From the NCBI GenBank assembly GCA_964016885.1, contig OZ024741.1, positions 240,808,001 through 240,872,000 on the forward strand: 64,000 nucleotides of DNA, given 5' to 3'. Every line of letters starts with the position of its first letter. The first letter of the stretch is position 1. The DNA is from Eledone cirrhosa. Taxonomy: Eukaryota. Positions 11,366-15,938 of the stretch are shown here, in pieces. The notes beneath the pieces were generated by a model. That model saw only the letters and a program-made list of their open reading frames with translations. It did not search any database and had not been told where the DNA came from. The position numbers and the translations under genes were made by a program.

Positions 11366-11490
11366 TATATGTATATATATGCGTGTGTATATGTATATAT
11401 ATATATATATGTATATATGTGTATGTGTATATATATACATATATATATATTGAATTCACAAGAATCAAAGTTATGTTTAAAACATTTATT

Positions 11491-11538
11491 CGCTGACAAT
11501 TGTTTCTTCCAAACCTAGGCTTGGAATCTTCAGACCAT
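11491..11538 (-). ncRNA. Hammerhead motif in the Penelope terminal repeat
   Basis: Minus strand: tggt-CTGAAGA-ttccaag/tttggaa-GAAA-caattg-TC-agcg; stem I imperfect. Confidence 0.7.
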
Positions 11539-13552
11539 TTTTAATGTTTGTACATATAATTGACCTCCTACTCAACCGAAGAAACATACAGATACATATA
11601 TATATATTGATGTTGTGTACAACAGTTTCATGTTTACAGTGTAGAATTGATGCAACATATATTATATTATACTATATTTGTACAATAATTCAAATTAAGA
11701 TTAAAATCAAAATTAAATTTAAAAACAAGATTAAAACCATAGGTTGGTATACATGCGACAGATAATACAGATAATACAAGAGAATAGTCTAATAATTAAA
11801 TTAAATTAAAGAGATAGTATATGCGTTAGTCATATATAAAGGGATGGAACAACCAAATGTATCATGTATATATGAGTACTGTATGGCAAGGTATTACATG
11901 AGATACAAGCACTGTAAGTGAATATGTTAGTGCATTATGGTGGTTGCAATGCGTGGATATTTTCTGTATAGTTCAAATTTGTATGTGTGCAGAAAAAGAA
12001 AGTTAGTTTTCACATCCATCACATAAGTTACGATATATTTGTATTGAATGTTTGTTATAGTAATGGATTGTAATGTATTGTAACTTAGTGTTATTTAATC
12101 CATATTTGTAGATTAGGGTCTTTCAGCTGCGAGAATTTACAGGGTTTAATATCCGGAAGTGGGTATGTAATTAACGGGAGCTAATGCGTAAGGGGAGGTA
12201 ACTAGCTCATTATAATAATTAAATTCATTGTTCAAATAGACATTATATGGTGCCTCAATTGAGTCCCTCATATAAAAAGTGATATATTTATATTTAATTT
12301 CAAATACAGTCTACTCTCTCATAATATATTAATAGAAAGTTGTCTACCCAATATTATATAGTGCCATAATTGAATTTCTCATACAAAGTGCTATATATTT
12401 ATATCAAATTAACCTTGACATCTTAAAGGTCCAATTAGACTTTTGTCTACCCAACATTTGGTAAGCTATGGAATAACGTACAGCTGTTTGCATGATAAAT
12501 TAGATACACCTCTTGAGTGAATAAATTCATCCTCTATATACAATGCTATTAATCTAAGGGTCGATAAAATAAAGTACCAGTAATGTACTGGGTAATTGCT
12601 GGCCTTGTGCCAAAAGTAGAAACAGTTATTAATCTATACATTTAATTATAAATGTATATATAATTCATTGTTCCATATTACATATAATTTAGACAAATCC
12701 CTTATGTTAATAAATTAATCCTATACATACATACATAAATTAATCCTATACATACATACATAAATTATTCCTATACATACATACAATTAATCCTATACAT
12801 ACATACAATTAATCCTATACATACAATGTTATTATTCTATATATTTAATTATAAATGTATATATTGTTGCATTTAATATTTAAAGTTTATATAAACTGTA
12901 TTATATTACAATCACTATATAATTATAAGTGATCTAAAGTAATTATATTAAAAGGTGGTGATTATAAGGATATTTCTAGAGTATAAAGTTATAGATAAAA
13001 TAATTTGTGTAGAGGAAAGGGTGGATCAGAGAATGTGATGTGGTGGTGGAAGGCCAGACCTAGAGGTGAAGTGCTAGTGGTGGTGATGAGTTCAAATCTG
13101 ACATTGTTATATACTAGGTTTAACATTTTGGAAATAGTGTTGGAAACAGTGTTGGCACGATGCAAACACTTCTGAATTTTTATTAAGGAGGTTAAGATTC
13201 GAAAAGATTATAGTATGGGTCTCTAGTAGACAGAGGTTACAAAATTTATTAGGTGGTTTATACGATGCAGCCCTACCTACCACTTCCCATTGAAGCTACT
13301 CTTTACCTAGACTCTAAAATATATACACCCTTTTCATAAACCTAACGAAAAACTAATTTATGCAGTTACCAAGTCTAACCACCCTAGATCCATATTAAAC
13401 TCAATCACTAAAGAAATATCTAATAGAATCTCTAATCTATCTTATAACGAAACCATATTTAGCAATAATTCACAATACTATAATCAGGCCACAATAATGG
13501 GATTGAGTTCCTACCTATAAAATCACATAGTTATAACATTATTTCTCACAAT

Positions 13553-14413
13553 ATGGCTATGAGGAAAAATAGTAATAAGACTAATAACCACACTTACACT
13601 AATACGAAGGGTAGCATCAAACTTAACTCGCACCAGAGTAGACACCAAAATACTATAAACAGAAATACCTCAATAGATATAAAAAACAAAAATAGAAGAA
13701 CTAATACATTTTTCAATCCCCCTTTCAATCTAAACGTCTCTACCAACTTACCTAAGGTTTTCTTCTCAATCCTGGATAATAACTTCCCGTCTGGCCACAA
13801 GTACCATAGTCTTATAAATAAAAACACCATTAAAATCTCCTACTCTACCACACCTAACATAGCATACCATATAGCTAGTAGTAATAAAAGAACGATTAAT
13901 ACTTATTTTCAACAAACTAAAACACAGCAGGGGATAAACTTTCAAAACAACATAATAACTACAAACCCTAATAACAATAGTAATAATAGTAATAACACTA
14001 ATGAAATCAATAACATTAGGAACGACAACCATCATAGCCCTAATGCAATACCTAGCAACCAGACTTCTACACAACATAATAACCGACAAGATAACATCCA
14101 AAATAAATCTAACTGTAGATCAAATAGAACCTTCCCTTTAGGTAACAACTGCTTAATCAAGGACATCATTTACTCGTGCACGGTCAATACCAACAACTCT
14201 TCTGAAACCTATATAGGCACTACTTCGAACTGCTTCAAGACGAGATACAACTCACACCTCCATTCTTTCAAAATACACAATCTAGCCAACTCCACTTCAC
14301 TATCTAGCTACATACACTATCTGAAAACTAGGAATAGATCATATACACTTCAATGGGAAGTGGTAGGTAGGGCTGCATCGTATAAACCACCTAATAAATT
14401 TTGTAACCTTTGA
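13553..14413 (+). pseudogene. Penelope-like linker and GIY-YIG endonuclease ORF remnant (Asn-rich stretch)
   Basis: FFNPPFNLNVSTN, LINKNTIKISYSTTPN, CLIKDIIYSCTV...TYIGTTSNCFKTRYNSH, WEVVGRAASY..FCNL; the missing CLLE...LLNKNSEVFASC end is present on the minus strand at ~13150-13235. Confidence 0.88.
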
Positions 14414-15167
14414 TATTATGAGAGAGTAGACTGTATTTGAAATTAAATATAAATATATAACTTTTTATATGAGGGACTCAATTGAGGCACCATATAATGT
14501 CTATTAGAACAATGAATTTAATTATTATAATGAGCTAGTTACCTCCCCTTACGCATTAGCTCCCCTTAATTACATACCCACTTCCGGATATTAAACCGCT
14601 GTAAATTCTCGGACCCTAATCTATAAATATGGATTAAATAACACTAAGTTACTATAACAAACATTCAATGCAAATATATCGTAACTTATGTGATGGATGT
14701 GAAAACCGTAACTTTATTTTTCTGCACACATACAAATTTGAACTATACAGAAAATATCCTCGCACTGCAACCACCATAATACACTAACATATTCGTTTAA
14801 AGTGCTGTATCTCATGTAATACCTTGCCATACAGTACTCATATATACATGATACATTTGGTTGTTCCATCCCTTTATATATGACTAACGCATATACTATC
14901 TTTTTAATTTAATTATTAGACTATTCTCTTGAATATCTGTATTATCTGTCGCATGTATTCCAACCTATGCTTTTAATCTTGTTTTAAATTTAATTTTGAT
15001 TTTAATCTTAATTTGAATTATTGTACAAATATAGTATAATATAATATATGTTGCATCAATTCTACACTGTAAACATGAAACTGTTGTACACAACATCAAT
15101 ATATATATATGTATCTGTATGTTTCTTCGGTTGAGTAGGAGGTCAATTATATGTACAAACATTAAAA

Positions 15168-15215
15168 ATGGTCCGAAGATTCCAAGCCTAGGTTTGGAAG
15201 AAACAATTGTCAGCA
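15168..15215 (+). ncRNA. Hammerhead motif in the Penelope terminal repeat (core variant CCGAAGA)
   Basis: tggt-CCGAAGA-ttccaag/tttggaa-GAAA(15200)-caattg-TC-agca. Confidence 0.6.
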
Positions 15216-15938
15216 AATAAATGTTTTAAACATAACTTTGATTCTTGTGAATTCAATATTACTGCTCTGTAAAACAACTGTTGTTCTTACATTGAGCTAT
15301 TTATCTTACTGGTAATAAGGTAAATTACTGACCTTCCCTGTTTATAGTTGTTTATAGTATAATATATACATAACTATAAATAGTATCTTTAATATTATAT
15401 ATATATATATTTACATATATGTATATATGTATGTATATATATATATACATGTATGTATAGATAGATATATATATATATGTATGTATATATATAAGTATGT
15501 GAGAAAAACCACAGATCCTCCATCTCAACTCTACTTTTGAAAAGCAGAAGAACTGCGAAACCGGTAAAGGAACCAAATAAATATATATATTTAAAAAAAA
15601 AATAAGACTCCAGTTGCATTTTCGATTTCATCTTTTTTTCTTTATAAGTATGTATATATATATATATATATGTGTGTGTGTATATATATATGTATGTGTA
15701 TATATATATATGTATGTATATATATATATGTGTATATATATATATATATGTGTATGTGTATATATATATATGTATATATATATATGTATGTGTATATATG
15801 TATATATATATAATGTAGGAGGTGAGTTTTATTGTAGCACAATAAAGCAATGCAAATATCAGATAAGTAGCACTCAACAGTTTATAGGACTGGAGTATAA
15901 ATAATATAAGAACAAAAGATAGTTAAAAGAGTTCCATG

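Follow-up and report, generated by a model that had tools for sequence, protein, structure and literature searches.

A stretch of 64,000 nucleotides of Eledone cirrhosa (contig OZ024741.1, forward strand positions 240,808,001 to 240,872,000; hereafter the window, numbered from its first letter) carries at 11448–15360 what is almost certainly a single old, dead Penelope-like element (PLE) insertion of the Hydra clade in a (TA)n run. An inverted copy of the element's 3' end is fused here to a forward, 5'-truncated copy, and only the latter continues into an unpaired tail; this arrangement, already described in the original prediction, is confirmed in the sequence. Our analysis of this large element, of small cassettes elsewhere in the window and of independent loci points to a short hairpin, absent from the original prediction and carried in two copies by intact elements, as what sets both insertion ends, which would explain the one-sided tail. 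Taken as a whole, an account that combines a dead Hydra insertion, cassettes from sister families and starts set by hairpins is the best explanation, and probably the correct one.

Hairpins and the ends of the insertions

The tails start with a hairpin whose 4-bp base is either ACUC/GAGU or GCUC/GAGC; it also has an upper stem and a 2-nt 3' bulge, and RCT follows it. In the large element the tail hairpin (15264..15297, + strand) has the GCUC/GAGC base, the upper stem and the 2-nt 3' bulge with no trailing RCT, and sits 7 nt past the shared end of the two arms (fold z −2.5, 6/200 shuffles); a hairpin at an offset of 5–9 nt arises in 3 of 20000 shuffles of this tail. A strict hairpin descriptor found 13 matches in the window against 1.8 ± 1.2 in 100 shuffles, about five of the 13 being unattached to a recognisable unit.

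As an independent test set we used 15 loci with Hydra-type open reading frames (ORFs; L001–L015), fetched from contigs filed as bacterial genomes; (TA)n runs are present in them, and they are most likely animal DNA in bacterial bins. No DNA similarity was found between the large element and these loci. A slightly widened descriptor gave 25 hairpin matches in the 15 loci where 4.7 ± 2.1 were expected, and all five matches of a hairpin model built from the window only fell on such hairpins (E 0.02–3.3). When folded, 19 of 27 hairpins (two sequences counted twice) have a 4–5-bp base with a 2-nt 3' bulge, and the same hairpin can be seen by eye in the published consensus sequences Hydra-2_Amil, Hydra-1_Ajap, Hydra-2_Ajap and Hydra-1_Crog. 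A MAFFT alignment of the locus hairpins left their 5' stems out of register and was not used for a model.

The ends of the insertions cluster just upstream of this hairpin. At 17 of 19 distinct (TA)n junctions, the interval of possible starts includes the position 7 nt upstream of the hairpin. These 19 are the junctions for which a reference with a hairpin exists; where one end had several rows the repeats were dropped, as was a cross-family row for the end at 9190, which has a reference of its own, and the offset of the junction at 54670 was set by hand. The tail-less arm of the large element (11448..13295) meets (TA)n 4–9 nt ahead of the expected hairpin start, and the distance from the hammerhead ribozyme to the end spans 44–60 nt over eight window arms.

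Six loci extend to the ORF start. In L004 the 5' untranslated region (UTR) is replaced by an inverted arm, and all five loci with a 5' UTR have two hairpins just ahead of the ATG, at spacings of 62, 63, 65, 65 and 68 nt, although hairpin 1 is clipped in L007 and carries mutations in L008. Eight of nine tails in the loci are 62–68 nt long, none having been found for L006, and tail length matches hairpin spacing, with a tail of 65 nt and a spacing of 65 nt in L003 and a tail of 67 nt and a spacing of 68 nt in L007. In these two loci the 3' tail copies the hairpin-1 unit and meets (TA)n 7–8 nt before the expected hairpin 2.

A different reading of these ends is that UA-rich tracts alone prime on (TA)n, that the hairpins serve promoter or translation control and that the inversion arises by fold-back or self-priming on an antisense template. 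A TA tract does overlap nearly all junctions, hairpin 2 begins 30–49 nt before the ATG in the five loci, and self-priming has been proposed for inversions of rotifer Penelope elements (PMC3846280, in the part available). We nevertheless judge this improbable: other TA-rich tracts occur between hammerhead and hairpin and in the UTRs, yet the ends gather at a single offset; in family X a lone T stands at this position, and the ends fall there regardless; and most junctions here have spacers, not central palindromes.

The large insertion and its clade

The self-comparison proposed in the original prediction was done by BLAST with microsatellites masked, since an unmasked run was swamped by them, and returned the inverted matches as described (11455–12327 with 14413–15251, and 13231–13295 with 14348–14412). 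Aligned over 11448–13295 and 14348–15258, the arms are identical at 889 of 908 positions, with 19 substitutions and nine gaps, one of which spans 903 nt. The unit opens, after a (TA)n/(TG)n target run (11364..11450), with the inverted, tail-less arm (11448..13295, − strand; 1,848 nt), which comprises the endonuclease C-terminus, the complete 3' UTR and a hammerhead. The forward copy begins, 5'-truncated, with motif 7 and the thumb of the reverse transcriptase (RT; 13296..13496, + strand; frameshifts near 13330 and near 13490) and passes into a 309-codon open frame (13484..14410, + strand) with a Hydra-type linker, an Asn-rich insert, a degenerate CxCX5C motif and GIY-YIG as far as the deletion. 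The 3' UTR common to the inverted arm follows (14413..15258, + strand), and then the tail (15257..15360, + strand; 101–104 nt), which belongs to the forward copy only and whose far end, in AT-rich surroundings, is uncertain by up to 30 nt. An AT-rich and (TA)n run (15361..15495) adjoins the unit on the right, so that (TA)n stands on both flanks.

The 903-nt block (12328..13230, − strand) is confined to the inverted arm and holds the ORF end and the 5' portion of the 3' UTR. It carries the last 41 codons and the stop (13230–13107, − strand), and the end of the ORF can thus be reconstructed, as had been foreseen. The last 62 codons and stop (13107..13295, − strand) include CxxC, a catalytic-type Glu and Asn, and CxH; the forward copy also has only the first 21 of them. 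Within the block lie a dispersed-repeat fragment with a 10-bp target duplication (12557..12626), putatively of short interspersed nuclear element (SINE) type, and a tandem array of 4.9 copies of a 25-nt unit (12710..12825), so that part of the block may never have been in the forward copy.

It is hardly credible that the inversion is an assembly or read artefact. In favour of this, losses on the forward arm account for six of the eight small gaps, and a tail end is mirrored over a TA run at 25460–25615 with 100% identity across 59 bp, a local duplication or an assembly artefact. Nevertheless, the arms differ by 19 substitutions, a SINE-like insert flanked by a separate target duplication sits in one of them, and the layout recurs at unrelated loci. 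Divergence between the arms is uneven, with 2 differences over the last 277 nt against 25 over 631 (P 0.009).

The ORF is assigned as a putative Hydra-clade RT/GIY-YIG protein by motifs, homologues and a by-eye alignment, the RT core being absent. Using full-length homologues in tBLASTn (best E 1e-30 in a window-sized database), we located the RT thumb at 13329–13496, the linker at 13697–13897 and the endonuclease at 14099–14410, an order that bears out the earlier identification of a PLE ORF with RT thumb and GIY-YIG. The 309-codon frame has 31 homologues longer than 541 aa among 3333 candidates (best E 4e-29) and 61 of similar length among 742, no informative name being attached to any of them; homologue P0001 clusters with RVT_1/GIY-YIG groups. 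The match of the endonuclease to Pfam GIY-YIG was weak (E 0.011, below cut-off), and YIG and the catalytic Arg are invariant across the homologue alignment. Pfam gave nothing relevant for the 309-aa frame or for homologues P0001, P0004 and P0016, PHROGs were uninformative, and a profile of 25 homologues matched no solved structure.

According to the part of Craig et al. 2021 (PMC8557442) at hand, the Hydra clade is characterised by RWK, DKT, CxCX5C, CxxC and CxH motifs, a divergent RT4 and no insertion in the fingers domain. The full-length homologues bear these published motifs; RWK and DKT were found in P0001–P0006, and the corresponding part is truncated away in the window copy. CxxC and CxH are present around the conserved Glu and Asn in the inverted arm (13295–13110). 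The position of the linker CxCX5C aligns, yet its first and third Cys are replaced in the decayed window copy. Between GIY and YIG the window translation has a single Cys and no Cys pair, and it has no CCHH motif; compared by eye with the published alignment, it fits the rows of Hydra, whereas those of Penelope, Poseidon, Nematis and Neptune do not match it (PMC8557442). The distance from RT motif 7 to the element end, about 3 kb with the 903-nt block included, departs from the description of Hydra elements as generally shorter than 3 kb, because the 3' UTR takes up 1.6 kb. The forward copy is dead, having two frameshifts, a degenerate linker zinc finger and a C-terminus lost in the deletion.

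Two other placements were rejected. Naiad, the first identity considered, and the Naiad/Chlamys PLEs as a group require an N-terminal endonuclease and the lack of a canonical hammerhead, and the domain order here puts the endonuclease at the C-terminus. For Penelope/Poseidon, Neptune or Nematis, the CCHH zinc finger is absent here and the linker fits, by eye, the Hydra rows only.

Cassettes, hammerheads and other features of the window

tBLASTn uncovered a second ORF-bearing Hydra element in the window (617..1711, + strand), with a short inverted arm (617–684), a frameshifted GIY-YIG (685–1054), a hammerhead (~1421–1503) and a tail hairpin at 1550; it is 38% identical to the large element across 60 C-terminal residues. 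The original prediction had also listed five small cassettes of one layout. In each of the five, the arms are inverted, a single tail is left unpaired and TA sequence lies on the flanks, but those at 15812 and 26638 lie in the opposite orientation. They are found at 6648..7135 (+ strand; two hammerheads, arms identical at 161/169 positions, hairpin-bearing tail of 77 nt), 9190..9540 (+ strand; short inverted arm stopping in stem II, tail arm with full hammerhead, 92-nt tail), 15812..16193 (− strand; two hammerheads, 91-nt tail), 26637..27069 (− strand; arms 142/143 identical, two hammerheads, 90-nt tail) and 54672..55199 (+ strand; hammerhead on the tail-less arm only, 97-nt tail). The tail-bearing arm of the last begins inside the hammerhead and holds a SINE-like insert with a 16-bp duplication.

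These small cassettes are very probably independent, heavily 5'-truncated insertions of sister Hydra families. Compared with the 617 terminus, hammerhead included, four of the five gave z-scores of 5–10, and two pieces of the cassette at 54670 gave 1.5–2.0. With the hammerhead excluded, the scores were 4.8 (9190), 4.1 (15812) and 9.4 (26638), and those of 1.3 (6647) and 1.9 (54670) indicate no clear resemblance. No significant similarity to the terminus of the large element was found (z at most 2.5 with the hammerhead, at most 1.7 without), and direct descent of the cassettes from that family was rejected on this ground; their expected homology to a PLE terminus is thus seen with the sister element and not with the large one. 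Three control palindromes (27125, 57859 and 18453) showed no similarity to the termini of the two ORF-bearing elements. The two arms of one cassette resemble each other more (142/143; 69/72) than they resemble siblings (122/132, 107/127), and siblings differ in junctions and in arm length, from ~10 to 170 bp. As each sibling has its own junction and arm length, they represent separate truncated insertions and not a multiplied unit.

The remaining units are a tail-less arm with hammerhead plus a tail piece starting within the hairpin (25268..25518, + strand), a cassette with 69-bp arms and a hairpin-bearing tail (25932..26179, + strand), the smallest unit, with ~10-bp arms, a 98-nt tail and TA runs on both sides (41011..41129, + strand), and a palindromic unit with a tail hairpin and no hammerhead seen (1785..2085, − strand). 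The last forms a hammerhead-less palindromic family with 3442–3628, the former having its tail hairpin at the expected offset and the latter two tail-less ends. An informal count by eye, biased toward tailed units, gave for the window 11 units that are tailed at one end and tail-less at the other, one that lacks a tail at both ends, no head-to-head pair of tails, two solo tail-less arms and two tail-only pieces; small inverted one-tailed cassettes also occur in loci L005 and L011. In a minisatellite at 7571–8156, the 68–72-nt unit takes in ~22 nt from the very end of a tail-less Hydra-type terminus (8137–8250) together with its TA-rich flank.

The cassettes could alternatively be miniature inverted-repeat transposable elements (MITEs) or palindromic units copied whole, of an origin separate from that of the large insertion. 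They do resemble TA-flanked terminal inverted repeats, they lack significant similarity to the large element's terminus, and the 1785–2085/3442–3628 family has no hammerhead. We regard this as very improbable, given the covarying hammerheads, the one-sided tails and the likeness to the ORF-bearing 617 element; non-autonomous DNA transposons with a fixed interior, MITEs among them, are not what the window holds, as junction and arm length vary between siblings.

The hammerheads are clear in the small cassettes. A hammerhead descriptor gave 10 matches in the window against 0.06 in 50 shuffles, and 28 cells of the window hammerhead alignment show two-sided change, a level reached in 0 of 500 shuffles, which the relatedness of the sequences may inflate. 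A C opposite C mismatch occupies the fourth position of stem II in most window hammerheads, with covarying flanking pairs. In the large element, putative hammerheads are recognisable at the expected 3' position but degenerate: the core is there, stem II has 8 bp and stem III is palindromic, but stem I has a mismatch on both arms. The copy at 11490..11538 (− strand) appears to be a minimal type I hammerhead with an intact core, and the forward copy (15168..15216, + strand) has a core U-to-C substitution at 15174; minimal type I hammerheads whose stem III is palindromic correspond to the dimer-type form (PMC4209133, as far as available). The original claim of a hammerhead in both arms stands for the place of the core, but both copies are decayed and escaped Rfam as well as our strict descriptor; Rfam found no hammerhead at 11456–11580, nor at 26650–27060 in one of the cassettes. 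A covariance model built from the ten other window hammerheads placed both copies correctly, with E values of only 0.25 and 0.66.

The arms mostly run across the hammerhead cleavage site, which indicates that their templates were mostly uncleaved. One arm in locus L011 (7205–7260) starts exactly at the cleavage site, and in the window an arm start at 26014–26030 possibly lies within 3 nt of it; such arms suggest an occasional cleaved-RNA template. In the 617 element, arm differences in stem III (660–684 vs 1479–1492) would fit opposite-strand CpG decay of one palindrome. A separate hammerhead at 32269–32340 (− strand; Rfam HH9, below the gathering score), with no TA end or hairpin seen nearby, was the only one in the whole-window Rfam search among the 150 of 284 matches listed.

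Outside the Hydra units, a single-exon frame of 825 codons (44122–46596, − strand) encodes six cadherin domains and is protocadherin-like, presumably of the octopus or cephalopod type. A U4 snRNA-like match (62–199, + strand; 50.2 bits) lies just above the gathering score and a U6-like fragment (47829–47874, − strand) below it. Two SINE-like families are dispersed in the window, one at 488–617, 12557–12626, 54843–55034 and other places and the other at 2081–2436, 7226–7583 and other places; copies of one of these families, with target duplications, have entered two Hydra-type units, and two further copies lie as an inverted pair at 52964–53389. Fragments of long interspersed nuclear element type occur at 2424–3242, 4308–5681, 17119–17959, 27927–28377 and 56085–56955, with an RVT_1 match at 5220–5681 (E 4e-21). 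A 135-codon frame (48822–49226, − strand) has no Pfam match and may be a piece of a Helitron helicase.

Proposed priming of the insertions and relation to known systems

We consider it fairly likely that two starts of reverse transcription, each positioned by a hairpin, prime opposite strands. The template would be an RNA of tandem or read-through type, with one unit's 3' end continuing into the 5' UTR of the next, where two bulged-hairpin copies lie. The RT-endonuclease, probably as a dimer, would nick both strands of (TA)n, and cDNA synthesis would begin ~7 nt upstream of each hairpin, where a short UA-rich tract could base-pair with the nicked end. A start at hairpin 1 would yield a tail-less cDNA, and one at hairpin 2 a cDNA that takes in hairpin 1 and the spacer, which make up the tail. 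Both cDNAs would proceed toward the 5' end, stop independently and join head to head, giving unequal inverted arms, one of them tailed. The sequences themselves show where the ends lie, that the hairpin is conserved and that tail length matches hairpin spacing; recognition at the RNA level, the dimer, the priming from two strands and the order of these events are what we infer. For the Hydra clade at large we lean, if only slightly, towards the duplicated bulged 5' UTR hairpin being a ruler, with one start ~7 nt upstream of each copy, a tail of one hairpin repeat unit and insertion by paired priming from both target strands. The original proposal that the cassettes and the large insertion share an inversion-prone integration mechanism is thereby supported as a mechanism of the clade, the cassettes not being derivatives of the large element's family.

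This two-start reading agrees with the behaviour of the Anolis Poseidon PLE in vitro (Frangieh et al. 2024, PMC11167929, in the part at hand), for which nicking and extension of both strands, two internal starts bounding the tail, a stem-loop in the start region, an AT-rich target and a predicted dimer have been reported. The Poseidon starts lie in the ORF at one AC-rich stem-loop, whereas the Hydra starts here are non-coding and each precedes its own hairpin copy. Identical genomic ends would result if the RNA were processed or stalled 7 nt upstream of the hairpins and primed from its 3' end, or if the hairpins acted as inverted repeats in the DNA, which the endonuclease would read during resolution of an intermediate. 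In favour of these, the tail has been ascribed to endonuclease-mediated resolution (PMC8557442), and PMC11167929 cites an earlier finding that tail DNA is needed for endonuclease recognition. However, the conserved 2-nt bulge and G-U pairs fit a single strand better than a duplex site, and the internal starts of Poseidon in vitro are independent of the RNA 3' end, and we regard this pair of alternatives as unlikely, if worth keeping in mind.

Several points weigh against priming set by hairpins. Poseidon starts were reported at a site not homologous to the cut DNA (PMC11167929), unlike the TA overlap seen here. End-mapping sees only junctions within ~20 nt of a hairpin, and the 19 junctions come from ~8 families, ends in one family not being independent. 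Two of the 19 fall outside, that of L011 at 7205 with 3 nt and that of the window at 25268 with 11 nt, the latter against a cross-subfamily reference and, by eye, compatible with 7 nt against reference 26638. The hairpin of the large element, without its RCT, was missed by a model built without it (0/18 matches), and covariation of the basal stem inside the window is weak (2 pairs; 16/500 shuffles). Units with two tail-less ends exist (window 3442–3628; L005 776/4443; L011 1318/7420). A tail stopping before hairpin 2 is directly seen in two families only, and, as the window holds no intact 5' UTR, its 90–101-nt tails cannot be matched to a spacing. Finally, the reading offers no explanation for the nine gaps and the uneven divergence between the arms of the large element.

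An inverted arm with a one-sided tail has already been published for PLEs in general, including a Hydra family, and the large insertion adds one family of textbook PLE layout to a thinly sampled clade. In the available part of PMC8557442, Hydra elements (Hydra-1_Obim, Hydra-2_Amil, Penelope-13_HM) share with it a C-terminal GIY-YIG without CCHH, the linker and C-terminal motifs, a near-3' hammerhead and a (TA)n target, and Penelope-13_HM is listed with a 5'-truncated inverted copy attached, like the layout described here. By eye, linker and hammerhead differ from those of Hydra-1_Obim, which is a different family. Compared with published Hydra elements, the large element has a ~1.6 kb 3' UTR, an Asn-rich linker insert and a ~100-nt tail, PLE tails being given as 30–40 bp (PMC8557442). 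Penelope elements of Adineta vaga also have an inverted pseudo-long terminal repeat with an optional tail and Asn-rich ORF inserts, but belong to another clade, with a 31-bp tail, visible target duplications and a proposed self-priming (PMC3846280). Non-long terminal repeat retrozymes are likewise small non-coding hammerhead sequences related to PLE termini (bioRxiv 10.64898/2026.07.22.740005, partial text); they are head-to-tail tandems, whereas each cassette is a tailed pair of inverted arms, joined head to head at a junction of its own, and this identity was rejected for the cassettes, whose hammerheads are inverted or single.

The tail hairpin and the two-hairpin UTR are visible in the supplementary sequences of PMC8557442, yet go unmentioned in its text, where, as far as available, the word "hairpin" is absent. 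We found no literature on a duplicated hairpin fixing PLE ends, an earlier mention being possible in subscription papers or Repbase reports. The hairpin thus apparently is an undescribed cis-element that makes the origin of PLE tails testable; PMC8557442 lists that origin, like the origin of the inverted flanks, among the unresolved questions, and in PMC11167929 two start sites were shown but, in the part at hand, not what sets them across families. As a short signature, the hairpin allows recognition of Hydra-derived fragments missed by Rfam and Pfam. If the proposal is true, PLE priming would have a defined cis-element, with which RNA-templated insertion could be directed into (TA)n. Since telomerase is the sister group of the PLE RTs, an RNA element setting the start on the template would also be of wider interest.

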